This document shows, in pieces, positions 29 through 13,517 of a stretch of 13,636 nt of DNA. The DNA comes from Candidatus Nanohalobium sp. (GTDB lineage: Archaea; Nanohalarchaeota; Nanosalinia; Nanosalinales; Nanosalinaceae). The notes under the pieces were generated by a model. The model worked only from the letters and a program-made list of their open reading frames with translations, was not told the DNA's origin and did no database searches. The translations under genes were made by a program, and so were the position numbers. Numbering within the stretch: position 1 is the stretch's first letter; each line of letters opens with the position of its first letter. Location of the stretch: positions 1 through 13,636 of the forward strand of contig JBDGTY010000068.1 of the NCBI GenBank assembly GCA_042216335.1, given 5' to 3'.

Positions 29-1318
29 ATGAAGAAACACGCAAAGAAAGCACTTAGCCATGAAGTATCTGTCTTGGGTAAGACTGTTCCGACGCTGGCG
101 ATCGCTGCACTCTTCCTTGTCGGAGGAGGAACAGCCGCCACACTGACCTACTTCGGACAGGTCACAGGAACAGCCAACGTTGACCAGGCAGTACTCGTTA
201 ATGGTAATCCTGGAGAGACAACAGTCGACATCTTCGACGGCAGCGAACCTATTACTGCTGGAGAAACTGTTGTGGACACATTCCAGATTAGCAACAACAT
301 GGATTCGGCCTACAGTCCGGCATATAACTCTGAGTTAAGCTACGATGGAAACACTCTGACTCAGACAGGAGCAGACATCGACTGGGTAGACAGTAGTGAT
401 AATCAGGTAGGGATCGACACGACGTTCGCCAATTACTTCAGAGATGCAGGACACAACTTCAGCGCAGTCAGCGCAACAAGAACTGGTGCTGACGTAGTAG
501 TTGATCCTACAGATGACGGCTCTACAGATACTCCTGACACTATCAGTGCAGGGATTGAGGAAGTTACTGAGGACACAGATGATGGAGATAGAGAAATTGT
601 CTTCGTTGCTCAGAGAGATTCAGGTTCCTACAGTGGATTTACACTTGACAAGGCAGGAGTTTCCGTAGTCTCCAATGGAGCCAAGGTCAAAGGGAACATA
701 GAGATTGCTGCTGACAACTTCAGGCTTTCCGGATTCGAAGTTGTTGATGCCGAGAACTCTGCTAACAACGACATCATCAGGGTTCAGACCAATTCCGTAG
801 ATTCTGGAGAGATCAGTAATCTTCTCATCAACGGGAAAGGAACAAGTGACACAGGAACAGGAATCTATCTGAACCATGCCAACGCAGCATCCAATCTGGT
901 CATCAAGCATAACACGATTAAGAATGCTTGGGCCGGAATTGGGGGCACAGAATCCTTCGAAGGATCCATTAACTACAACGTCTTCAAGTCCAACGACGAA
1001 GCGATCGGAGTCGGAGACGACGAGTTCAGCACTGAAGGAAACCGTTTCGAGAACAATGTAGCCTCGTTCAGAGTCTACGACACGGGCAAGTACAGTAGCA
1101 GCAGTCCTAGTGTAGATGCAAGCGGCAACTTCTTCCATGAACCATTCAACATAGAGTACAAGGGTGATATGGGAGAGTCAGACGTTTCTGCATCCTATCA
1201 GACAGTAGATTCGGTTCCTGCTGGAGAAACTGTCACTGTCGGCGTAGTCAACGAATTCGATCTCATGATTAACGGAGCCTACGACTACACGCTGACAACA
1301 GACATCACGACAAACTAG
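29..1318 (+). CDS. Secreted surface protein with a right-handed parallel beta-helix (pectin lyase-like/NosD-like) flanked by beta-rich N- and C-terminal segments; putative fibre subunit
   Basis: 429 aa with a strong RBS. Basic N-region plus hydrophobic signal segment (TLAIAALFLVGGGTAA). Beta-helix cap (DTISAGIEEV...IVFV...GSY) and repeats (NFRLSGFEV, GIYLNH, NLVIKHNTIKN, INYNVFKSN, GNRFENN, VDASGNFF) at about 491-1135. Very acidic, no C-terminal TM. Confidence 0.8.
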   Translation: MKKHAKKALSHEVSVLGKTVPTLAIAALFLVGGGTAATLTYFGQVTGTANVDQAVLVNGNPGETTVDIFDGSEPITAGETVVDTFQISNNMDSAYSPAYNSELSYDGNTLTQTGADIDWVDSSDNQVGIDTTFANYFRDAGHNFSAVSATRTGADVVVDPTDDGSTDTPDTISAGIEEVTEDTDDGDREIVFVAQRDSGSYSGFTLDKAGVSVVSNGAKVKGNIEIAADNFRLSGFEVVDAENSANNDIIRVQTNSVDSGEISNLLINGKGTSDTGTGIYLNHANAASNLVIKHNTIKNAWAGIGGTESFEGSINYNVFKSNDEAIGVGDDEFSTEGNRFENNVASFRVYDTGKYSSSSPSVDASGNFFHEPFNIEYKGDMGESDVSASYQTVDSVPAGETVTVGVVNEFDLMINGAYDYTLTTDITTN

Positions 1319-1329
1319 AATTGATTTAA

Positions 1330-1394
1330 CCTCTCACTTCATTCTTTTCCGAGAGGATTTTCGGCAGGCCCGGCCTAACCGGTTGAGGCCTGCC
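1330..1394 (+). terminator. Two intergenic stem-loops with T-rich tracts: possible terminator or mRNA-stabilising element
   Basis: CCTCTC (1330-1335) pairs with GAGAGG (1351-1356) and is followed by ATTTT. GGCAGGCC (1363-1370) pairs with GGCCTGCC (1387-1394). The function is inferred. Confidence 0.4.
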
Positions 1395-1403
1395 CTGATA
1401 CAT

Positions 1404-1940
1404 ATGCATAGGAAGTCGGCAGTGCTTGTCGCAGGATTGATCTTAGCTGCCGGTATGGGTTCTGCGGGGGTTCTGGAGAGTTTTGGAATTATCTCCGGGA
1501 CTGTGGATGTCGAGGGTCCGACTTTCTATGCTGCTGATGGTAAGGTGCTTCAGCTTGATGTGCCTGAGGGAGATGAGAAGGTCGATTATCTTGGTGTGGG
1601 GCCGAAACCGGGAGATGTCGAGTACTTCTCGACCCGTGACCTGGGAGGGAAGGAATGGTATGATCTGGAGGCGGAGATGTATGTCGAGGTTAAGGCTCAG
1701 TCCGGTGTGGAGAACGCCAGTCTGAACCTTCAGTTCAACTACAGGGATAGCTCTGGTGACTGGAACGGGTGTGGGAAGTGGGTCAACTTCGAAACGCAGG
1801 ACAGTTACCACACGGTCTCGGTTAGCTGCGACCTTGACGTGCCCGGAGATGTGGAGAAATTCCAGTACGTTATCGAGGCCAGGGACGACCTCGGAATCCA
1901 GGCCACTGGAGGAACAAGAGTGGAGGTGAACGCGCAGTGA
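1404..1940 (+). CDS. Secreted beta-rich hypothetical protein (signal peptide, Cys pair); shares its N-terminal motif with the ORF at 29
   Basis: ORF track gives 1383..1940. ATG 1404 gives a normal signal peptide (MHRKSAVLVAGLILAAGMGSA). Acidic, beta-strand pattern, two Cys. The stop overlaps the next start (GTGA). Confidence 0.8.
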   Translation: MHRKSAVLVAGLILAAGMGSAGVLESFGIISGTVDVEGPTFYAADGKVLQLDVPEGDEKVDYLGVGPKPGDVEYFSTRDLGGKEWYDLEAEMYVEVKAQSGVENASLNLQFNYRDSSGDWNGCGKWVNFETQDSYHTVSVSCDLDVPGDVEKFQYVIEARDDLGIQATGGTRVEVNAQ

Positions 1941-3433
1941 GAAAGATCATGGCCTTGCTGGCTGCATCGGTTCTGCTGACAGGTTTCTCTGCCGCGGCGT
2001 CGGTCGACCTTGAGATGGTGCAGAATCCTTCCATGACAGCAGGGAGGACCGGAGAAGCGGTCATCAGTTTCAGGTATGAGGGAGATCAGTTCGAGGACAG
2101 GGCGTTCGACCCGTTCGCGTTGCTGGTCTCGGTTGACCACGAGAAGGGCAATCTCTCGAACCGTTACTTCGATGCCTCCGGCCGGTTGAGCTACTCCTGG
2201 GCTGGCAACAGTTACAGTTTCGATCTGGAGTGCGTGGCGGGGCCGGAAGAGGTCTCGAGCATGAATCAGACTGGCAGCTTCTACTCCACGCAGAGTCAGG
2301 TGGTGGAAAGCAATGAACTTCTCTGCGTCCCGAAGAACACATTATCGGTGCTGAAAAGTAATACTTTCATCGAAGACGGCAAGATAGAACTGAACTTCTC
2401 CACGAGTCCACGGGTCGCTCCAGGCAAGATGAACATAACCTACAGCTTCGGCAGCTTCTCCGGCTTCCCGCAGTTCGATCCTCTCCTCGAGGCGAACGAG
2501 AACGGCACAGTGGAGCTGGAAGACCACGGCATCAGGATAGAAAACCTTGAACAGGGTACGGAGATCGGAGTGGTCGGCTACTCCGCCCTCAACGTCCAGA
2601 ATCCGGTGCCGGACTCCGAAAGCTTCTCCCTCGGCTACTACGAGCTAGAACCCAGGAAGAAGGCATCCGGAAAAGTGTTGATAGAGTACGACCAGCAGAG
2701 CATCGATGGATCCAACCGATTGAACCCGAGACTGTACCGCTGCAGTATCCAGGCAGGGAACTGTGACTGGGAACTGATTTCGAACCAGTCCGCTGCAAAC
2801 GGAATCCTGAAAGCCCAGCTTGATCATTTCTCCCTGTTCGGATTATTCACATCGAAAGAGAGAAAAGTTGTCATCAGGGAGGAAACGCAAACAGTTGACG
2901 GCGATGGAGGTGGTGGAACCACGGTCGTGACCCGGACAGAGACAGAGTACGTGAACAACACGCAGACGGAGACAGAGAAAGTGATTAAACCGACAGCATC
3001 GTTCGACATCCTCTACACCTCCCCGGGAGTAAGGAAAGATGTAAGGTTCAATGCCTCCGACTCCTATGATCCTGATGGAAGCATAGAGAGCTACAAGTGG
3101 AGCTTTGGGGAATCTGGTAAAACAGTTGAACAATCATTCCCTGTAAACAAGTCTGTCAACGTTACCCTGACGGTCACGGACTCGCAGGGCGTCCAGGATT
3201 CGGTAACGAAACAGCTTAACTCCGGCATACGACAGGGTCAGGAAACCGGAACTACTGACGACAGAGGAACACAGGACGCTTCACAGTCGATTACAGGACA
3301 GTTCCTTGGCTCGACCTCGGATATGGTCGGGATACTTGCGTTGCTCGTAGTGGCGGCACTTCTAATCCTGGTCTATACGGGCCGAGTCAATCCTGAAGCA
3401 CTATACAGGAGGGCAAAGCAGAAGATTGAATAG
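1937..3433 (+). CDS. Membrane-anchored cell-surface glycoprotein with a PKD domain
   Basis: GTG start with GGAGGTGA at 1922-1929, signal peptide. Beta domain ending LDHFSLFGL, then a Gly/Thr linker. PKD signature PTASF...VRFNASDSYDPDGSIESYKWSFG...VTLTVTDSQG. C-terminal TM (MVGILALLVVAALLILVYT) and basic tail. Several N-x-S/T sequons. Confidence 0.88.
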   Translation: MRKIMALLAASVLLTGFSAAASVDLEMVQNPSMTAGRTGEAVISFRYEGDQFEDRAFDPFALLVSVDHEKGNLSNRYFDASGRLSYSWAGNSYSFDLECVAGPEEVSSMNQTGSFYSTQSQVVESNELLCVPKNTLSVLKSNTFIEDGKIELNFSTSPRVAPGKMNITYSFGSFSGFPQFDPLLEANENGTVELEDHGIRIENLEQGTEIGVVGYSALNVQNPVPDSESFSLGYYELEPRKKASGKVLIEYDQQSIDGSNRLNPRLYRCSIQAGNCDWELISNQSAANGILKAQLDHFSLFGLFTSKERKVVIREETQTVDGDGGGGTTVVTRTETEYVNNTQTETEKVIKPTASFDILYTSPGVRKDVRFNASDSYDPDGSIESYKWSFGESGKTVEQSFPVNKSVNVTLTVTDSQGVQDSVTKQLNSGIRQGQETGTTDDRGTQDASQSITGQFLGSTSDMVGILALLVVAALLILVYTGRVNPEALYRRAKQKIE

Positions 3434-3441
3434 TGAGTTTT

Positions 3442-5127
3442 CTAAGTGTGGAGACCGGTTTCGTCTGTCTGAACCTTGAAAAATTCCTTCAGTGGAGCAT
3501 CCCCGTATACTTCCCTGATGTTCTTGCCTTCAGGATACTCTTCCAGTCCGAGCAGCCAGGGGAACTCTCTTACGACTTCTTCTGCAAGGTTGAAAGCGTC
3601 CTGTCTGTAGGAGAAGTTGCCTTCTGGCGTGGAGCGCAGGTTGACGAAGTACTGCAGCTGGTCGAACCCCATACTGAATGTGATGGTTGTCATAGTCGCC
3701 ATCGGCAGCAGGTACTGCGTCTGGAGAGGGAAGTCGTCCCGCATCTTTTTTTCCGCCTCATGTGCGATCTCCATAGTTTCGTCAAACAAATTTTGCGCCT
3801 CCTCAGGCATCTCATTGACCACATCAGGTCTTGAGTATCCCATGTCGAGCGTGTAGATGTTCTCGCCCCTGTCGTTCTTCTGGTGTCTTCTCAGATCTCT
3901 CAGTGCGCCGACATCGGTCTTTATCTCGAAGGTTATCTTCTCGATATCCATTTCCTCGTTCCTTCCGATCCACTCATCGTGCTCTCCACGCTTCTCAACC
4001 TTTCTCTTCAGGATTTCAAGCTTCTCGTTGTAGCTCATCGACTTCGCCTCTTTGAAAGCTTCGCTGAAGCTGTGGTGGTTGTTCTCCTTCAGTATGTGGC
4101 CGACTACTTTCTCGAAAGCGTTGTCCGGCCTCGAGATGATGTCTACTCCTTTCTTGATCTCTTCAGGTTCTTTCTCGATCTCCATATCGCCGTCGTAGAG
4201 GTGGAGCTTGTCGCTGCGATACTCGCTCTCCTCTGTGTACTTCAGCAGGGATGGTGCGATCTCTCCGCCAGCCTCCTCGATCTTCTCCGCTGATTCCTGT
4301 ATCTCGCTTAGAGGATGGCCTTTCCACGAAGCTATGTCGAACTCTGTGCTCCTTGCGTCCAGGATCCAGGCGATATTGGTCTGGATGGCCTGAGGCAGGA
4401 GGAACCGAGCTATATCAAGGCCTTTCGCATTGATTTCTCTTTCGTACTTCCTCTCCAGAAAGCTCTCTGACTTCTCCTGTATTTCTTCCGGCTGCATCTC
4501 CAGCCATTTCTCGTATGGGTATTTTTCCCTGTAGAACTCATCGGCGATCTCGGCGAACCTCTCGTAGTTCTCCGTCATCTTTTCGATAGTATCTGTGTAA
4601 GTTTCTGCATGTTCGCTTTCCATTACGTCCGGATCTCTGTAGTAGTTTTCCTTGTCGAACTCGACGTAGCGGGTTGATTGTTCGATGAAGAAGGCTAGCT
4701 GGTCGTCCGCAAGCTTTCGTGCGAATAGCTGGCTTACATCGTTGGCCACGAACGGTATCCAGACGGTGTTAGCGATGGACTTGTGGCCGTATGTTCCGTA
4801 GTATTTCTCGAAGAAGCTCTGTGCCTTCTCAAGTCCTGCTTCCAGTGCTTCCTGTGGGTGCTCGAAGCTCTCTCCGTCTGCATCTTTTTCAGTGGTGTTG
4901 GCCAGTTTTTCCAGTCTTTTCTCTCCGCCCTCTATCTCGTGGCCTTTTACCTCGCCTTTGATGGCGTCGAGCAGGTGTTCTCTGACGTCTTTCGGGCTGC
5001 GTGAGAAGAACGATCCGAACGCCCCGAATATCTCAGGCCGCATGTTTTTGACTGCGTATATGTCTTTTTCCGGGGTTGTTACGAAGTTTTCCAGTGCCTT
5101 TTTCTCTTTCTCGGTGAAGTCTGTCAA
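3442..5127 (-). CDS. thyX: FAD-dependent thymidylate synthase, tandem two-domain (long) form
   Basis: 561 aa. Motifs YGHKSIA, EQSTRYV and DIARFLLP-x3-TN in domain 1; RDLRRH, QYLLPMA and YFVNLRS-x-PEGNFSYR in domain 2. TTG start preceded by GGAGG. Confidence 0.88.
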   Translation of the reverse strand: MTDFTEKEKKALENFVTTPEKDIYAVKNMRPEIFGAFGSFFSRSPKDVREHLLDAIKGEVKGHEIEGGEKRLEKLANTTEKDADGESFEHPQEALEAGLEKAQSFFEKYYGTYGHKSIANTVWIPFVANDVSQLFARKLADDQLAFFIEQSTRYVEFDKENYYRDPDVMESEHAETYTDTIEKMTENYERFAEIADEFYREKYPYEKWLEMQPEEIQEKSESFLERKYEREINAKGLDIARFLLPQAIQTNIAWILDARSTEFDIASWKGHPLSEIQESAEKIEEAGGEIAPSLLKYTEESEYRSDKLHLYDGDMEIEKEPEEIKKGVDIISRPDNAFEKVVGHILKENNHHSFSEAFKEAKSMSYNEKLEILKRKVEKRGEHDEWIGRNEEMDIEKITFEIKTDVGALRDLRRHQKNDRGENIYTLDMGYSRPDVVNEMPEEAQNLFDETMEIAHEAEKKMRDDFPLQTQYLLPMATMTTITFSMGFDQLQYFVNLRSTPEGNFSYRQDAFNLAEEVVREFPWLLGLEEYPEGKNIREVYGDAPLKEFFKVQTDETGLHT

Positions 5128-5159: not shown

Positions 5160-5230
5160 GTGAGGATTATAATTGTGTTGGCGTAGCTGGTGCTGAGGTA
5201 ACTTAACTTTTTCTGTACTGGTTTCAGGTG
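5160..5230. promoter_or_regulatory. Divergent promoter region between thyX and the histidine kinase
   Basis: AT-rich TATA-like elements ATTATAATT (5166-5174) and CTTAACTTTT (about 5202-5211) lie in the intergenic gap. AGGTG, an RBS-like site, is at 5226-5230. Confidence 0.4.
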
Positions 5231-5239
5231 TGGTTGGGT

Positions 5240-6016
5240 TTGACGAGCAGTGAGGAAGTAGTCGAGGATATCTACCTGCACGATGTAAAGTCCGGCAAGA
5301 TGGTTCTGGAGACGGCTGTAGGAAGTGAGGTCGATTTCGGGCCTTCTGAGGACGAAGAAGTTGAGAAGCTGGAGTTCTTCCAGTCTCTCGTTGATAACGT
5401 CTATGAGGATATCGAGCAGGAAGGTATCAGGTCTGGAGAAGGGGTTTACGGCACTCTCGCCTGTTTTGAGGGTTATTTTGATGGCTGGGTTGGAGACACA
5501 GTGGACAGGATTTCGAACTGCAGCGCGATAGTGTCGGAGTATCTTGACGAGGCCGGAGAAGAATCCGTGGTAACTGTCTCCGAGCTGGGTGAAAGGCTGA
5601 GCCAGTATGGCGCAGAGGTCGAATATGAAGCCTCTTCAGAAGTCGAAATAGAAGCCGACAGAGGCCTTGCGATGGCATTCAACACTCTGGGAGTCAACCA
5701 GGAAGAACATACCTCGGAAGGAACAGACTGGTACGCCGAGTTCAACGTAGAGGAGGACGAACTCAGGGTAGAGGTCTGCGACAACGGCACAGGGCTCGAA
5801 AGTTATGCTGGAGAAGAGATATTCCAGAAAGGCGTCGGCGACGGCTCAGGCAAAGGACTCTACCTGGCCAGAAGGTTGATAGAGGTGAATGACGGAAGCA
5901 TCGGATACAGCCCCGATATCTCCAATGAAGGAGGATTCGGCCTCGAGATAGAGGTGCCTCTCAGTACCGAACACCGGACTCTGAGTAGAGAGGAAACTTC
6001 TTCAGAAGTTCGCTGA
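5240..6016 (+). CDS. Cytoplasmic histidine kinase-like protein (H-box plus HATPase_c) with no sensor domain
   Basis: H-box-like LHDVKS near the N-terminus. N-box-like [12 protein letters not shown]1 VCDNGTGL, F-box EEIFQKG, G2 [18 protein letters not shown]. Start is TTG 5240 (AGGTG 9 nt upstream) or GTG 5228 (ORF track). The 3' end overlaps glyA by 56 bp. Confidence 0.8.
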
Positions 6017-7223
6017 CTCTTTCAGAGACGTTTTCCCGAACTACGCTTTTTTCTGGATTCTTAACCACTCTTCCGATCATCTTGCCTATCTCCTCAAGCT
6101 CTTCCTCCTCCATGCCTCGCGTCGTTAACGCAGGAGTGCCGATCCTGACGCCTGAGGTAACTCTCGGCGGCTCGGGGTCGTAAGGTACTGCGTTCTTGTT
6201 CACCACTATGTTTGCTTCTTCCAGTGCTTCCTCGGCCTCCTTACCGGTTACTTCCTCATCTCTCAGGTCGACCAGCACAAGGTGGTTGTCTGTTCCGCCT
6301 GAGACCATCCTCAGGTCGTGCTCTCGAAGTCCCTCTGCCAGCGCCTTACTGTTCTTCTTGATCTGTTCAGCGTAATCTTCGAACTCTGGCCTCATAGCTT
6401 CCCTGAAACAGACTGCCTTCCCTGCGATCTGATGCATCAAGGGGCCGCCCTGAGAGTAGGGGAAGACTGCTGAGTCCACGTCATTGGCATACCTCTGCTT
6501 GCAGAGGATCATGCCTCCGCGTGCACCTCTTATCGACTTGTGTGTGGTGGAGGTCACGATGTCGCACTCCGGGAAAGGGCTTGGGTGGACTCCAGCGGCC
6601 ACTAGACCGGAGATATGGGCGATATCACACATCAGCAGTGCATCGACCTCATCCGCGACCTCACGGAACATCCCGAAGTCTATCTCACGCGGATAGGCAG
6701 AGTAACCGCAGACGATCAGATCCGGATTGTGCTCCTTCGCCGCTTCCATCACGTCCTCCTTCTCGAACCTCTCAGTCTCTTTATTGATGCCGTACGTGGC
6801 GAAGTCGAACAGGTCGCCCGAGAAGTTAACTCCGTGGCCGTGCGTCAGGTGGCCTCCGTGGGAAAGCACAGGCCCCAGAATCTTATCCCCTTCGTCCAGC
6901 TGGGAGAAGTAGGCCGCGAAGTTGGCCTGTGAACCACTATGTGGTTGGACATTTGCGTGATCAGCATCGAAGATCTCGCAGGCACGCTCCTGCGCCAGGT
7001 TCTCCACTTTATCATGATACTCGCATCCCGCGTAGTATCTTTTCCCGGGATAGCCCTCCGCGTACTTGTTCGTCAAGACGCTTCCCTGTGCCTGTAGCAC
7101 CTGTTTGGGCACGAAGTTCTCCGAGGCGATCATCTCCAGAGACTCGCTCTCCTGCCTCTCAACCTCGTTCTTCAGTGCTTTGTAAACTTCGGGATCTGCC
7201 TCAGAAAGATCGCGGTGCTTCAT
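5961..7223 (-). CDS. glyA: Serine hydroxymethyltransferase (bacterial-type, PLP-dependent)
   Basis: [61 protein letters not shown]-lysine motif [36 protein letters not shown]. Confidence 0.98.
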
Positions 7224-7250: not shown

Positions 7251-8312
7251 CTATCTTTTCCCGGTGGAATTCATGTCTTCGGTCAGGTTGCCCGGAGTCT
7301 CCTGCTGCGTGGTATTACCTGGGGTGCTGCCGGTCGTGTTCTTTGAACCGGTTTCCGTGGAGTTGTAGTACTTGGTTTCGGTACTGTTCACTGTATGGCT
7401 TTCGGTCGTATTTTCGGGTGTTTCCGCACCTTTCTGGTTCGCTCCTCTGGTTTCCGTGGTGTTCTCCGTGTTTTTCTCAGTGATGTTTCCGGACTCTGGA
7501 TGACTACTTTCTGAAGCATCTTTCCTGTTTACTGCTTTATTCACGGGGTTCCTGCTTCCGTCTTCACTATCCATTTCATCTGGATCGTTGTTGATCTGAT
7601 TTCCGGGGATTTTTCTGGGTTTTCCCCGCTTTTTTCTATCCTGGCCTCTGCTCAGGTTTGCTTCTGTCACATTGTTTCTCATACTCCGATCTGTGCCTTC
7701 TGATATCTCCGATGTGTTTACAGAGGGTTTCTTTTTACTCTTTTCCGATCTGGCTGGCGTTTCTGGTGTTCCTGCCGGTGTTCTATTCAGTTGAGAAGAG
7801 TTCCTGGGGTTCGATGGCCTATCTACTGCTTTTCCCGGAACGCCTTCCTTTCCGCCGAATACTGCGTTCTCCAGGGTAGTGACTGCCTCTGTCACCTGTT
7901 CGAGGATGCCCTGTGGTTTCATCCTCTGATGGAGCTCTTCCCTCTCCAGTCCTGTCGGCAGTGCGACGTCTTCACCTCTGCCTGTCCTCAGTGTCTGCTT
8001 TCTGGTTCTGTCCGAGGTGTTTCCGTTCGAGGCCTTGGCGTACCATTCGTAGGTGCTTCCTGATCTCAGGCTGAGCGAAAGGTTGACGGTGCCTCTGCCT
8101 ATCATGACGGCCTCCAGGCTCCCGTTTACGTAATATCTGACCTTTGAGCTGTCTTCAACGCCTGAAACGTTTACTGTGAGAACCACTTCTGAGAACTCAC
8201 TGCCTGCATCAACCCGTGGTTCAAGGGCTTCCGCCTGGATATCGCTGCTTTGTGCCATCGCAGCTCCTGTCAGAACAAGTAGAAATGTAGTCAGTATGAA
8301 GGTTTTTCTCAT
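7251..8312 (-). CDS. Secreted protein: Ig/FN3-like domain plus long low-complexity, sequon-rich tail
   Basis: Signal peptide MRKTFILTTFLLVLTGAAMA. Beta domain with the LRSGSTYEWYAKASNG motif. Disordered K/R/N/T/P tail with about 18 N-x-S/T sequons overall. Confidence 0.8.
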   Translation of the reverse strand: MRKTFILTTFLLVLTGAAMAQSSDIQAEALEPRVDAGSEFSEVVLTVNVSGVEDSSKVRYYVNGSLEAVMIGRGTVNLSLSLRSGSTYEWYAKASNGNTSDRTRKQTLRTGRGEDVALPTGLEREELHQRMKPQGILEQVTEAVTTLENAVFGGKEGVPGKAVDRPSNPRNSSQLNRTPAGTPETPARSEKSKKKPSVNTSEISEGTDRSMRNNVTEANLSRGQDRKKRGKPRKIPGNQINNDPDEMDSEDGSRNPVNKAVNRKDASESSHPESGNITEKNTENTTETRGANQKGAETPENTTESHTVNSTETKYYNSTETGSKNTTGSTPGNTTQQETPGNLTEDMNSTGKR

Positions 8313-8356: not shown

Positions 8357-10699
8357 CTAGCTGAATACCTCTACAAATCTTCCTGTCAGGCTTTCGGACC
8401 GGGCTCCGGCTGATGGCTTGTTCTTGGGTCCCTGTGTCTGACCGCTGCCTGTTGAGGCGCTTGTCTCCATCTTTGCTCTGGCCTCTGCTCCGGCTTTTAC
8501 ACTTGTGTTGCCTGCTGATGCCTGGGTCTGTGCACTTGCTTCGACTTTCGCATCCTGTCTTACTGTGGAATTGCCTTTGCTGGGTTCCTTCCTTACCTCT
8601 GTTTTGTTAGATTCCTCTGGCGTGGCTTTTCTCCTTTTTCCAGTTTTCTGGTTTCTTTCGTTCTGGCGTTTTCTCTCTTCTTCTCCGGGCTTGCCTTTTT
8701 TCTGCTTTCCTTCGATCGGAGGAGTTGATTCTTTACTCTCATCTGGACTTTTCTCCATCTGGTTTCTGTCTGGCTTCAGTGGCTGGCTTTTCTCCATTCC
8801 TCTCTGCTGATTTCTTCCTCCTTTTCTGTGTGATCTCTCCTTCTTCACGTTTTCCAGTGCCTTCATCAGTCCTTGTTTGGCCTGTTCTGGAGCGTCCTTG
8901 ATGACTTTCTCCAGTGTCTGTGCGGCTTCCTCTGTGGCGTTTCCACTGTCTCCAGCGGTCTGCCTCAGCTGCCCGAGTGCTTTCTGCGCCGCTTCCGTTT
9001 TGTTCTGTTCTGCCATCAGGACTGCTTCGCGTGCTCTTTCCTCCATCACCTGTTCGCGCGATGTTAGTCCTATCGCCATCGAGACCCTGTCGAACGCCAG
9101 GTCCAGTCCGTAGAACATCGAAGTGGGGTTGAAAAACCCGGCTCTGGCCTTCCTGGCTACGTTGCTCGCCTGGCTTGGAAGAGGAGGTCTGCTGGTATTC
9201 CTATCTTTCTCTTCACTACTGGTTGACGTGTTGAACTGCTGTAATTCTGTGGATGAGGTGTTTATACCGTCTGTGGTGGCTGCGCTCCATGTGAAGGTTT
9301 CGTTGACTGAAAGGTTCGAGACTGTGGAGCTGACTCTGCCATATCCCTCAACGATGCCTTTCTCCTCGCCTTCGAGGTAGAAGGTGGTCTCAAGGCTCGA
9401 ATTATCGGGGTCGGTCACGTTGACGTAGAGTGTCGTGTTTGCTGTTGCGCCGACGCTGACCTCCGGTTTCAGGGCCTTAATCTCAGGTGCATGGTTACTT
9501 TCTGTCTCATTTTCTGTAGTGTTTTCTTTCTTTTCTTCCTCGGCTATGAGTTGGTATGCTTCGTATATGTCCAGTCTTCCGCTCCCCTGACTGTTTTCAC
9601 CGTATCCGAGTTCGTCTGCGGTGTACATAGTCAGGTTTTTTATCTCTGAAGGAGCCAGTGATGGGTCTTCGGCGAGCAGGAGAGCTGCTGCACCTGCTAC
9701 ATGAGGTGTCGCCATCGAGGTACCTGAAAGAGTGTTAAACTGGGGGCTGTCACCGCTGTTCTTCCAGAGAGAAGTTATCTGTTCGCCCGGAGCTACCAGG
9801 TCGGGTTTTACTCTTCCGTCGGCTGTAGGGCCTCTGCTTGAGAAGTCGCTGATCTCTCCGTTGCTGCTGGACCCCACTGTTATAGGTTTCTCTGCACAGC
9901 CTGGAGCGGTGATAGTTTGTTTCTCCGGCCCCATGTTGCCTGCTGCGACTGTTACAGTTACTCCTGCCTCTACTGCGTTGTTCACGGCTTTAGAGAGTGC
10001 TGAACTGCCGTCGCAGTTCTCGACATCTGCTCCCAGGCTCAGGGTTGCGACCTCTGCTCCGTGCTCGACAGACCATTCCAGTCCCTCGATCACGTCCGAG
10101 GCAGTACCTGCACCATCCTTGTTAAGAACCTTGACGTCGAAAAGATCTGCGTTGTAAGCTACTCCGCGGTATTCATCGTCTGGAGACGCTACGATGCCTG
10201 CAACGTGCGTTCCATGTCCGTTGAGGTCGTCCGTTCCCTCGCTTGTGTAGTCGACCTGTCTGTCAACGTCCAGTACTGTGTTATCCTCTATCCCGGTGTC
10301 AAGTACCGCGATGTCGACTCCTGAACCGGTCGTGTTCTGGCCCCACACCTTCTCCGCGTTCACGACCTTAGTGCTCTCTGAGAGACGAGTTTTTACTGTG
10401 TAGTCCGGCTGGATCTCCCTGACGAAATCCCTCTGCGCTAGTCTCTCTGCAGCAACCTTTGGGATAGTGACTGCAACACCGTTTATGATGCTGAAGTCAT
10501 GTTTAACGTTACCACCAGCGCTCCTGACGGCCTGTTTCGCCCTGTCGTCGGCGTTGGGCTGCGTTAAAATTATGACATCGACCTTCGTAGTATTAGGCTT
10601 CTGCTCCAGCCTGTCCTGAAGTTCAGGTGAAAGCTGTGCTGAAGCTGTTGAAACAGTCAAAACCAGTAGAACCGACAGAGCCAAGGTGCGAATCTTCAT
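8357..10699 (-). CDS. Secreted S8 (subtilisin-family) serine protease with I9-type propeptide, C-terminal Ig-like domain, DUF5667-like helical domain and charged tail
   Basis: Signal peptide and propeptide ([16 protein letters not shown]...VREIQPD). Catalytic triad motifs IAVLDTG (Asp 10298-10300), HGTHVAG (His 10214-10216) and [11 protein letters not shown] (Ser 9716-9718). Oxyanion AAGN and FSSRGP...KPDLVAPG. Confidence 0.95.
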
Positions 10700-11357: not shown

Positions 11358-11642
11358 TTACATCAAAACCGCCTCTCTCTCCTCTGATTTCTCGTCTTCG
11401 ATCTCTCTCAATTCGGAGATGGCGATATCTTTTCTCTCCATATACTCTTCCATCACCGCAAACAGATCTGCCAGTTCCTCTACTTCTCCGTCCTCCTCGA
11501 ACTCTCTAGCCTCCTCCACAACCTTTCTCCTCAGCCATTTACCTGCCTCCTCGTTTGGAATGCTACGGATCTCAGGTTCCTGATTGTTCTCTCTGATTAT
11601 CTTCGGTATCCTGTCACGGACAAGTTTCGGCAGGTCGCTCAC
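11358..11642 (-). CDS. MazG-like/phosphoribosyl-ATP pyrophosphohydrolase-like all-alpha NTP pyrophosphatase (COG4997 type); C-terminus apparently frameshifted (intact end would be 11329)
   Basis: KLVRDRIPKII start motif, EEAREF...EELADL metal-binding motif. GTG start directly abuts the Nudix stop. The family C-terminus RGGF...IVLEEV is present in another frame. Confidence 0.85.
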   Translation of the reverse strand: MSDLPKLVRDRIPKIIRENNQEPEIRSIPNEEAGKWLRRKVVEEAREFEEDGEVEELADLFAVMEEYMERKDIAISELREIEDEKSEEREAVLM

Positions 11643-12059
11643 TCAGAAAACCCTCTTCCTCAGCATCTGTTTCAATGTTTCAGTCGTATTTTCCTCCATT
11701 ATCTCCTCCGGAGTCATCCACCTGTAGTCCTTGAGTTCGTCTTCCTCTGCATGTTCGGTGTCCATGTTGACTTCGCCGCTGAAGCTTTTCACGTCGAAGA
11801 CTGTCAGGGTCACCTGGTCGCCGTCGTCTTCCGGGCCTCTGAAGAAGTGGTACATGCCGACAGGTTTTCCGGGTTCTATCTCAAGTGAGGTCTCGCCTTT
11901 CACCTCTCTTCTCAGTCCTTCAAGAGGTGCTTCTCCGTGTTCAAGTCTTCCGCCGGGCAGAATCCACAGCATCTCTCCGTCAAGTTCAAAACCTACGAAC
12001 AGGTATTCTCCGTCTCTCTCAATCAGTGCTTTGACTCCTGCGTACATCTTGTCGGCCAT
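11643..12059 (-). CDS. NUDIX hydrolase
   Basis: WILPGGRLEHGEAPLEGLRREVKGETSL is a Nudix box GX5EX7REUXEEXGU with two substitutions. C-terminal DYRWMTPEE. Confidence 0.92.
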   Translation of the reverse strand: MADKMYAGVKALIERDGEYLFVGFELDGEMLWILPGGRLEHGEAPLEGLRREVKGETSLEIEPGKPVGMYHFFRGPEDDGDQVTLTVFDVKSFSGEVNMDTEHAEEDELKDYRWMTPEEIMEENTTETLKQMLRKRVF

Positions 12060-12063
12060 GGTT

Positions 12064-12726
12064 TTATTCCTCGCCGAGAAGCATCTCGACCACTATCTGA
12101 AGAATCTGGACAAATACTCCCATGTAGGCTGTGTAGAGGCCGATGCCGTTGAGGAAAGGTGTACCTGGTCGCGTCTTTGTGACGTAAATCTGGTGGATGA
12201 GGTAGACTATGAAGCCGATGAGAGCCAGCGTGAAGGTGATCAAGGCGAAAATCCCGGAGAAGCTGCCGATGAATGATACTGCCAGGACACTGAGGAAGAT
12301 GTAGTTGGCGTATCTACCCCAGTTCGAGAAGTCGTGGCCTGTCCCGAACACGACTAGACCTGAGAGAACTGCTATAGCTGTTGTAACTATTCCAGTAATG
12401 CCGAGCGCCAGGGCCTGTACCGAAGGTGGCAGCATCCCGATTATGCCTGCGCCGAACATGCCGTACGCCAGCTGTATTATCGATGCTCCTCCAGCCGCCA
12501 TGGTTTTTTCTCCGCTTCTTACTCCTTTCTTGGCCAGCCAGACGCCTCCTGTCAGCATTGCACCGTAGACTATTACTCCGAGGAACAGCTTCCACTGTGG
12601 TGGGGGAAAAATTAGGTCGTTTACTGCTGCGAGCGGTGTGAATGCAAAGATCCACATCACTGCGATGTTCAGGATTATCAGTGCGGTTGCGATTCCCAGA
12701 CTTTTCAGCTGGCCTTGCTTAAACAT
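12064..12726 (-). CDS. Multi-pass membrane protein, Bax inhibitor-1/YccA-like
   Basis: About seven hydrophobic segments. ALGITGIVT...SGLVVFGTGHDFSNWG resembles the BI-1 'T..DFS..G' motif. The C-terminal GIGLYTAYMGVFVQILQI resembles ALxLYxDxxNLFxxLL. Confidence 0.7.
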   Translation of the reverse strand: MFKQGQLKSLGIATALIILNIAVMWIFAFTPLAAVNDLIFPPPQWKLFLGVIVYGAMLTGGVWLAKKGVRSGEKTMAAGGASIIQLAYGMFGAGIIGMLPPSVQALALGITGIVTTAIAVLSGLVVFGTGHDFSNWGRYANYIFLSVLAVSFIGSFSGIFALITFTLALIGFIVYLIHQIYVTKTRPGTPFLNGIGLYTAYMGVFVQILQIVVEMLLGEE

Positions 12727-12779: not shown

Positions 12780-13517
12780 GTGGAACAGGAAAACTTCCCT
12801 GGAACCTTCATCGTTATTGAAGGCCCGGATGCCTCTGGAAAAGAAACGCAGACTGGTATGATTGTCGAATGGTTGAGGGAACAGAAGGTTTCTGGCATAT
12901 CTGTCGAGGAAGAGAAAGAGTTGATTGAGGAGATGCCTGGTGATTATCCCGATCCTGGAGCTGAGAAAGTGAAAGATAATATCAGTGAGGGTATCTGGAG
13001 GCTTTCATTCCCGACCTACAGCCAGACTCCAGGCGGAAGAGTGGTTGGTGCCTACCTTGATGGTGAGCTAGGAGGAAGAGAAGAACTTGAGATGGAGACT
13101 GTAGTCGATATCTACGCTGCCGATAGGAAGCAGTTCAAGCAACTGATAGCCGATTACCTTGACAAAGGAGGTATCATAGTCTGTGACAGGTACAGGGAAG
13201 CCAACCTCATCCACCAGTTAGTCGGTTTCGACGGCGATGAATGGGAGGAGAAGCTGGAGTACATCAAATCCGTCGACGATGATCTTCCGGATGCTGACAG
13301 AGTCTTCTACCTGGATATATCGCCGGAGGAGGCGCTTCAGAGGATGGAGGATAAAGAGAAGGATATCCACGAGCTTGACGACAGCTACATGAAGAAGTCG
13401 AACCTGAACGGCAGGAAGGTGGCCAGGCATGAGGACTGGGAGGTGGTTGACGGTGAGAGACCTCGTGAGGACGTTTTTGAGGATTTGAGGGATAGAGTAG
13501 AAGCATTACTGGATTGA
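12780..13517 (+). CDS. tmk: Thymidylate (dTMP) kinase
   Basis: FIVIEGPDASGKETQ P-loop, SFPTY, YAADR, IVCDRY, PDADRVFYLDISPE, DIHE, VVDG. Confidence 0.92.
   Translation: MEQENFPGTFIVIEGPDASGKETQTGMIVEWLREQKVSGISVEEEKELIEEMPGDYPDPGAEKVKDNISEGIWRLSFPTYSQTPGGRVVGAYLDGELGGREELEMETVVDIYAADRKQFKQLIADYLDKGGIIVCDRYREANLIHQLVGFDGDEWEEKLEYIKSVDDDLPDADRVFYLDISPEEALQRMEDKEKDIHELDDSYMKKSNLNGRKVARHEDWEVVDGERPREDVFEDLRDRVEALLD

Follow-up and report, generated by a model that had tools for sequence, protein, structure and literature searches.

The 13,636-nucleotide (nt) stretch of DNA analysed here (hereafter, the window; contig JBDGTY010000068.1 of assembly GCA_042216335.1, Candidatus Nanohalobium sp.) opens with three plus-strand genes, ORF1, ORF2 and ORF3, all encoding exported proteins according to the list of open reading frames (ORFs) and their hydrophobicity. 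Judging from sequence comparisons, ORF1 belongs to a large, uncharacterised family of exported proteins in which the same two ends frame unrelated, freely swapped middle domains, and it is accompanied by a conserved pair of genes, one of them for a membrane-anchored protein. We tentatively favour a reading in which the three genes specify a membrane-anchored surface module: ORF2 and ORF3 would supply the base, and strand pairing would hold ORF1, one of many exchangeable proteins on display. To our knowledge, all cultivated DPANN archaea need direct contact with a host cell, and the molecules making this contact are largely unknown. Papers on nanohaloarchaea discuss, in the parts that are available, type IV pili, SPEARE-like proteins and generic signal-peptide proteins (PMC9563170; PMC11291902), and no description of this family or gene trio was found in the open-access literature. 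Should the conserved strand mediate attachment, whether to a base or within a polymer, it would provide a concrete handle on the ways in which these cells present and vary the surfaces used for contact; otherwise, the family would still be useful as a marker set for the exported proteins of this lineage.

ORF1 (29–1318, plus strand) encodes a protein of 429 amino acids (aa), predicted to be exported and to form a right-handed β-helix, with a leader/N-strand block and a C-terminal block found across the family. A word-based search yielded 15 homologues, one of them named from a Nanohaloarchaea genome, and in a 16-sequence alignment the first ~55 and last ~45 residues are highly conserved, the middle being variable. 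A profile search with these 16 sequences retrieved 1776 cluster representatives at E ≤ 1e-3, of which 311 remain at E ≤ 1e-10 and 77 at E ≤ 1e-30. Hidden Markov models (HMMs) of the N and C blocks were built from the same alignment and run over 253 proteins, including 161 related to ORF1 (145 new proteins and the 16 founding homologues, which match by construction). The N block is present in 130/161 and the C block in 98/161; 95 proteins have both, 35 the N block only, 3 the C block only and 28 neither. Those without either block (371–3588 aa, most longer than 650 aa) were matched via the β-helix only, and several of the 35 N-only proteins have, by eye, a divergent C block at their end. The C block lies 0–18 aa from the C-terminus in every case. 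Eight positions are kept in at least 90% of 95 members (A36, L39, G43, G47, Q53, G78, F410 and Y420), and they fall at the end of the signal peptide, in the first mature residues and in the last strands. Median identity, calculated over 1596 pairs from 57 members, falls from 0.50 in the N block to 0.22 in the middle, the C block standing at 0.28; in 28 pairs in which the N block or leader is at least 85% identical, the middles are 18–26% identical. Within the 95 members, the middle domain matches the HMMs Beta_helix in 26 cases, NosD in 15 and TIGR04247 in 40, and it is not a β-helix in homologues P0014 and P0016 or in the ORF1-type gene of a related locus, L001. Neither block is covered by any Pfam or NCBIfam model. 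A mutual-information scan between the N and C blocks of 95 sequences gave no contact signal, the top pairs all lying inside the leader and corresponding to leader subtypes. A family with so many unrelated middle domains is more readily understood as one of displayed surface proteins than as a major fibre subunit.

The pI is below 4.5 in 122/130 N-block proteins. A less acidic, cysteine-rich minority (P0227, P0228, P0233, P0231, P0164 and others; aspartate plus glutamate 8–11%, pI up to 5.65) carries a slightly different motif, with tyrosines before the glycine. On sequence grounds, the ORF1-type family may extend beyond hypersaline lineages. In groups that include, for example, P0007, P0014, P0016, P0114 and P0125, leaders are near-identical over up to ~70 residues, including a long cytoplasmic N-region, and mature parts are 18–26% identical; near-identical leaders on divergent proteins look like the outcome of concerted evolution or recombination at the 5′ end. 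A type IV pilin (class III) signal was considered and rejected: the residues leading up to the hydrophobic stretch run G-[KR]-x-[VI]-[PS], with the glycine replaced in some members. Inspection shows a small-residue site resembling that of signal peptidase I after the hydrophobic stretch of ORF1-type proteins.

The predicted Sec signal peptide of ORF1 (29–139, aa 1–37) consists of a basic N-region, a hydrophobic core and a small-residue end, G-G-G-T-A-A, and we infer cleavage after A36 or A37. By eye, the hydrophobic core ending in a glycine run and small residues presumably resembles the TasA signal peptide. The most conserved stretch of the family follows (140–193, aa 38–55), with a strand predicted at aa 44–51. 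The β-helix core (593–1078, aa ~189–350) is modelled in blocks of pLDDT 75–93 with short repeated strands, and the C-terminal block (1181–1315, aa 385–429), always at the extreme C-terminus in the family, has two predicted strands (aa 401–410 and 420–427). The AlphaFold model has a mean pLDDT of 66.8, with aa 1–78 below 50. Among the Foldseek matches listed, the best folds in the Protein Data Bank (PDB) are pectate, alginate and chondroitin lyases and pectin methylesterases, with a probability of ~1.0, a best E of only 1.6e-3 and TM-scores of 0.26–0.36. The Atlas structure rows agree with a parallel β-helix, and the model indicates a right-handed β-helix protein rather than a jelly roll of the TasA/AbpA type. 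Neither ORF1 nor ORF2 has a Pfam or NCBIfam match even at E ≤ 10, so that ORF1 itself matches none of Beta_helix, NosD and TIGR04247; its homologues P0003 and P0005 (59% and 41% identity) carry both Beta_helix (PF13229) and NosD (PF05048). Profiles of ORF1 and ORF2 gave chance-level matches only (E 0.14 to 1) in a sequence search of solved structures, and tblastn of both against a plasmid collection gave no match. A two-copy complex prediction for mature ORF1 (aa 37–429, 95-row alignment), run without controls, scored 0.00 twice with the verdict ‘no answer’, which is neutral on binding.

ORF2 (1404–1940, plus strand) encodes a predicted exported β-sandwich protein of only 178 aa. Its start, ATG 1404, was set by alignment with 8 homologues in which M1 and K4 are invariant; the ORF list had given TTG 1383. 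This family of 9 sequences (ORF2 and the 8 homologues) is characterised by a putative signal peptide (aa 1–21), a near-invariant segment (aa 24–41), two conserved cysteines and an invariant C-terminal VNAQ. The model has a pLDDT of 59, with aa 1–70 below 50, and its core is a predicted jelly-roll-like sandwich resembling carbohydrate-binding modules and the distal ends of phage fibres (tailspikes), at TM-scores of 0.26–0.48; the matches listed include no TasA, AbpA or other pilin.

ORF1 and ORF2 begin with a common motif. Alignment of the two families by hhalign covers 26 columns (ORF1 aa 27–52, ORF2 aa 12–37) with a probability of 94.4% and an E of 9e-8, beyond chance, so that the N-terminal strand motif proposed for both proteins in the first-pass annotation of this DNA stands. 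As a control for signal peptides in general, the ORF3 family was aligned with the ORF1 and ORF2 families, giving probabilities of only 14.9% and 24.6%. The N-block HMM matches 9/9 ORF2-family proteins and 0/83 proteins from the ORF3 search, ORF3 and two full-length homologues included, and six-frame translations of the window and L001 contain N or C blocks only in the trio genes. ORF3 and two other exported proteins of the window lack the motif, which is therefore not a general signal-peptide style of this genome. The common segment covers both the predicted signal-peptidase site and the residues that open the mature protein; if cleavage occurs at that site, a conserved post-signal segment (ORF1 aa 38–55, ORF2 aa 22–41) is a feature known from strand-donation filaments. 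The β-strand-like tails described at the outset are also seen, at aa 420–427 of ORF1 and aa 172–177 of ORF2, in models of low-to-moderate confidence.

All three proteins start with a hydrophobic segment, and their sequence patterns indicate Sec-type signal peptides with putative cleavage sites; a Tat signal was rejected, as there is no twin arginine. A second hydrophobic segment is found in ORF3 only (aa 463–482). The proteins are very acidic (pI 4.1–4.7), which, together with homologues named from Nanohaloarchaea, points to a probable nanohaloarchaeal source; ORF3 has 10 N-glycosylation sequons, ORF1 and ORF2 one each. ORF3 (1937–3433, plus strand, 498 aa, start codon GTG) comprises, in order, the signal peptide, a ~300-aa domain of no known family, a Thr/Glu-rich linker, a PKD domain and a C-terminal helix. 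The PKD domain (3032–3211, aa 366–425) matches Pfam PKD_4 at E 3e-9 (37.2 bits against a cut-off of 27) and also the PKD domains of solved collagenase and endoglucanase structures, down to E 1e-10; outside this domain, no family match was obtained for ORF3. The transmembrane helix (3323–3382, aa 463–482) is followed by a basic tail without a recognised motif, and no NCBIfam match to an archaeosortase/PGF-CTERM-type sorting signal was found in any of the three proteins. ORF3 is thus predicted to be a single-pass membrane protein with a PKD domain. A search with ORF3 gave 83 proteins, of which only ORF3 and two others cover at least 97% of the length, the other 80 covering at most 46%. The full-length ORF3 family amounts to four sequences, and the C-terminal helix is present in three of them but not in the L001 homologue.

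A Shine–Dalgarno-like GGAGGTGA (13–20) lies 8 nt before the ORF1 ATG within a 14-nt leader. A second perfect GGAGGTGA (1922–1929), missing from the earlier account, lies within the ORF2 codons for V-E-V-N, 7 nt before the GTG of ORF3 (1937–1939), which overlaps the TGA of ORF2 (1938–1940) to give GTGA. The 85-nt spacer between ORF1 and ORF2 contains two predicted hairpins, and positions 1310–1410 fold with an energy of -32.9 kcal/mol (z -4.1, 0/200 shuffles as good). Hairpin 1 (1330–1356, plus strand) has a T-rich run in its loop; hairpin 2 (1363–1394, plus strand) has a 13-pair G+C-rich stem with the core CAGGCC/GGCCTG and ends 9 nt before the ORF2 ATG. A scan for bacterial-type terminators gave no plus-strand call after ORF1, and the hairpins are not classical intrinsic terminators. 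Rfam and transfer RNA scans of the window gave no match, so that the hairpins belong to no described RNA family. The first-pass annotation had described three co-oriented secreted-protein genes, a perfect ribosome site before ORF1 followed by stem-loops after it, a GTGA overlap (1937–1940) between ORF2 and ORF3, no membrane anchor in ORF1 and ORF2 (each with an N-terminal hydrophobic segment only), and a PKD domain plus C-terminal transmembrane segment in ORF3; this description of the locus agrees throughout with the coordinates and matches given above. The invariant C-terminal residues of the ORF2 family are coded by the same bases as the ribosome site and start of ORF3 (1922–1940 in the window, 7716–7732 in L001), and because this ribosome site sits in those codons, constraint on the nucleotides may account for part of the conservation seen at the ORF2 C-terminus.

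A genome scan with the ORF2 alignment returned one locus, L001, in a Nanohaloarchaea metagenome-assembled genome. It contains homologues of ORF1, ORF2 and ORF3 in the same order and orientation, so that the synteny in relatives anticipated for the trio is found in 1/1 related locus. Protein identity is 30–40% for ORF2 and ORF3, and the ORF1-type gene has a different middle domain but the 14-nt leader around its ribosome site in common with the window. The spacer again has two hairpins (z -3.0), with a counterpart of hairpin 1 and, directly ahead of the ORF2 start, the CAGGCC/GGCCTG stem core seen in the window, and ORF2 and ORF3 overlap by 4 nt (ATGA), with GAGGTGA before the overlap, placed as in the window. 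The ORF1-type gene of L001 (6023–7099) is cut by an in-frame TAG (6614–6616) that separates the N block from the C block without a change of frame; read-through, an assembly error or a pseudogene could each account for it. P0003 (ORF1-like) and P0018 (ORF2-like) each come from a contig of 2572 nt, probably the same one. A multi-pass membrane protein without a family match (12064–12726, minus strand) has an apparent homologue, by eye, at 11393–12220 (minus strand) of L001, a few kb downstream of the trio, and the wider neighbourhood around the trio may be conserved.

In the surface module that we favour, the general signal peptidase would, after export, cut at the conserved small-residue site. 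ORF2 and ORF3 would be made in fixed proportion through translational coupling, which suggests such proportions rather than a tip and an anchor, and would form the membrane-anchored base. ORF1, which has its own strong ribosome site and is set apart from ORF2 by the two hairpins, would be one of many interchangeable ‘passenger’ proteins. Its conserved N-strand and C-terminal hairpin would close into one small sheet domain, holding the protein at the surface by β-strand pairing with the base or the surface layer, and the β-helix would then serve as a glycan-binding or glycan-cutting contact surface, plausibly directed towards the host cell.

Several observations weigh against this module. No result shows contact among the three proteins, and cleavage of the signal peptides is read from the sequence pattern alone. 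In both the ORF1 and the ORF2 model, the first 70–80 residues score below pLDDT 50, so the sheet domain formed by the N and C ends is not confidently modelled; a conserved N-strand with a conserved C-terminal strand is also typical of head-to-tail donor-strand polymers. The genomic context comes from one related locus, in which the ORF3 homologue lacks the C-terminal helix and the ORF1-like gene has the in-frame TAG. With 9 sequences for ORF2 and 4 for full-length ORF3, these two families are much smaller than that of the ORF1-type proteins, which means that most ORF1-type proteins may have no such partner, although word-based searches may have missed divergent relatives of ORF2 and ORF3.

The three genes could instead encode independent secreted proteins that happen to be neighbours, with ORF1 a free or loosely bound enzyme of the polysaccharide lyase or esterase type and the common motif a lineage preference in signal peptides or cleavage sites. 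We consider this unlikely. The closest folds of ORF1 are indeed polysaccharide lyases and pectin methylesterases, the motif does span the predicted cleavage site, and the window encodes other exported proteins (a subtilase and a sequon-rich protein). However, these two proteins and ORF3 lack the motif, the conservation continues for ~18 residues past the predicted cleavage site and comes together with a conserved C-terminal block, and L001 retains the trio with its non-coding features, at 30–40% protein identity (ORF2, ORF3) and around a different ORF1 middle. In addition, ORF1 itself matches no enzyme-family HMM, and its TM-scores reach only 0.26–0.36. ORF1 resembles the exported proteins of the Beta_helix PF13229, NosD PF05048 and TIGR04247 families in its core fold and in the family matches of its homologues, but differs in falling below HMM detection and in having its helix framed by the N and C blocks.

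A bolder extension of the favoured module is an undescribed display or fibre system, defined by the conserved leader/N-strand and C-terminal hairpin, in which dozens of unrelated passengers (β-helices and others) plug, by donor-strand complementation, into the ORF2–ORF3 base or into each other. This seems quite improbable. If true, nanohaloarchaea and some non-halophilic relatives would possess an attachment organelle unrelated to type IV pili whose adhesive heads, used in host contact, could be exchanged, and the near-identical 5′ ends on unrelated genes would allow cassette-like recombination to switch heads.

Comparison with known strand-donation filaments bears on a third group of explanations, in which the locus encodes a donor-strand fibre; over both of the role assignments considered below, we regard such a fibre as somewhat unlikely. 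The likenesses drawn here refer to the available parts of the papers cited. Archaeal filament subunits of this kind have ~170–350 aa and jelly-roll or Ig-like folds, carry Sec or Tat signals and strictly conserved first mature residues, and often have an adjacent cap or anchor gene (PMC9245690; PMC9715654; PMC12337348). The trio is like them in export, in the conserved first strand and in its adjacent putative partners, whereas ORF1, a β-helix protein of ~390 aa, is unlike the jelly-roll subunits of 170–350 aa.

The closest layout is that of the archaeal bundling pili (ABP) of Pyrobaculum calidifontis, in which abpA (204 aa) is followed by abpB (410 aa, with a signal peptide and several β-rich domains) and AbpA matches Peptidase_M73 by HHpred (PMC9245690). 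In both cases, a small Sec-exported β-sandwich protein directly precedes a larger exported multi-domain β-rich protein, the first mature residues are conserved and there is no dedicated signal peptidase or chaperone nearby (PMC9245690). Here, however, an extra β-helix gene precedes the pair, ORF3 has a PKD domain and a C-terminal helix, and there is no hmmscan match to Peptidase_M73, the match of AbpA having come from HHpred (PMC9245690). On this pattern, ORF2 (157 aa when mature) would be the pilin, ORF3 an anchor or initiator like AbpB or TapA, and the ORF1-type proteins alternative tip adhesins attached through the common N-strand, an assignment more in line with the ABP layout than ORF1 as the major subunit. 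The sizes and order match those of abpA (204 aa) and abpB (410 aa) (PMC9245690), the most conserved parts of the ORF2 family are aa 24–41 and the C-terminus, the ORF2 core is jelly-roll-like with an N-strand motif in common with ORF1, and there are many ORF1-type proteins for few ORF2 and ORF3 proteins. We nevertheless find it improbable, given that no TasA, AbpA, TafE or thread chain is among the 50 listed PDB matches of ORF2 (TM-scores 0.26–0.42, from the poor model of pLDDT 59), that ORF2 has no sequence match to solved structures, that its C-terminal conservation is partly explicable by the ORF3 ribosome site and that the tight coupling of ORF2 and ORF3 argues for 1:1 amounts.

The other fibre assignment is the one made in the first-pass annotation, a chaperone-free donor-strand fibre built by head-to-tail polymerisation of mature ORF1 through its N-terminal strand, with ORF2 as a minor or tip subunit and ORF3 as the membrane anchor. 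The filament and the donor-strand exchange are not borne out, as nothing shows either and there is neither a TasA family match nor a TasA or AbpA fold among the matches listed. The suggested Foldseek comparison with TasA (5OF1) and AbpA (7UEG) found no such chain among the listed matches of ORF1 or ORF2. Peptidase_M73 (PF12389) has no match in ORF1–3 by hmmscan at E ≤ 10 and is not among the 25 listed of the 47 families matched by 95 family members at E ≤ 1, beyond which a match could concern only one member, at E > 0.08. The SipW-cognate signal peptide TIGR04088 likewise has no match in ORF1–3 (E ≤ 10) or among the 25 listed of 26 families for the 95 members, and the window contains no signal peptidase gene, sipW-like or other. 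Like the TasA–TapA–SipW system of Bacillus subtilis, the locus has a signal-peptide/first-strand motif common to two secreted proteins of one operon (PMC9245690; PMC9674648; PMC10151520); it differs in its lack of PF12389 and TIGR04088 matches, in the absence of a sipW-like gene from the window and in the β-helix of ORF1. A lead in the other direction, and a lead only, is that the Atlas clusters nearest to ORF1 by language-model features are from Bacillota and combine Beta_helix with Peptidase_M73 (score 0.90, 167 shared features) or bear the name ‘SipW-dependent-type signal peptide’ (0.88). This assignment also accommodates two adjacent secreted proteins with common conserved first mature residues, an N block paired with an extreme C-terminal block, as if a strand filled a groove lined by the last strand of the next subunit, N-terminal segments that are not confidently placed in the monomer models, and a strong ribosome site and hairpins at ORF1. 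We judge it very doubtful given the ~390-aa β-helix of ORF1 with no listed TasA or AbpA fold match, the missing Peptidase_M73 and TIGR04088 matches, the many unrelated middle domains, which would be unusual for a major fibre subunit, and the coupling of ORF2 to ORF3, which suggests fixed proportions rather than tip and anchor.

Two further archaeal filaments resemble the locus more distantly. Archaeal threads (Saci_0406, with Saci_0405 as putative cap) likewise combine a Sec signal and a signal peptidase I site with first mature residues that are strictly conserved, and the small related protein encoded next to them has been put forward as cap or initiator (PMC9715654); the present proteins differ in having no sequence or listed fold match to them and neither the conserved N-terminal Asp nor the YYY motif. 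The Tafi pili (TafE/TafA) of haloarchaea have the halophile setting in common, and have several related subunits per locus, strand donation and, for some subunits, Sec dependence (PMC12337348; PMC11821415). Tafi pilins are, however, 170–350 aa long and mostly Tat-dependent (PMC12337348), whereas no twin-arginine motif is found here. Homologues of Tafi are listed in Halobacteriales, Archaeoglobales, Thermococcales and Sulfolobales, and ‘DPANN’ and ‘Nanohaloarchae’ occur 0 times in the available text of that paper (PMC12337348).

The ends of ORF1 and ORF2 also recall, by eye only, the pilins of chaperone–usher systems. As in such pilins, the N-terminal extension is conserved and alternates small with hydrophobic residues, glycines among them, and the last strand is conserved and carries a tyrosine close to its end. 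The present organism is a single-membrane archaeon, and no chaperone or usher genes are present here.

β-Helix domains also occur in archaeal envelope proteins, which counts for an explanation in which ORF1 is the S-layer protein of the organism and ORF2 and ORF3 are accessory envelope proteins. Although the strong ribosome site and hairpins suggest high expression and an S-layer is reported on Ca. Nanohaloarchaeum antarcticus cells in the available part of the source (PMC11291902), the many paralogue-like family members with different middle domains, the single sequon of ORF1 against 10–18 in other exported proteins of the window and the lack of a C-terminal anchor make this scarcely credible.

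Two further exported proteins with ordinary signal peptides, 18 sequons each and no ORF1/ORF2 motif are encoded on the minus strand of the window: a 353-aa protein with no family match (7251–8312) and a 780-aa S8 subtilase with a DUF5667 match and a long Lys/Glu-rich tail (8357–10699). The gene next to the trio (3442–5127, minus strand) encodes a ThyX-type thymidylate synthase of 561 aa. It matches Thy1 twice and is about twice as long as that profile (191 positions), and from these matches it is apparently a tandem or fused form. Genes for serine hydroxymethyltransferase (SHMT; 5961–7223, minus strand) and thymidylate kinase (12780–13517) lie near it, and the 3′ end of the SHMT gene overlaps by 56 nt that of a convergent gene for a small HATPase_c-domain protein (5228–6016, plus strand).

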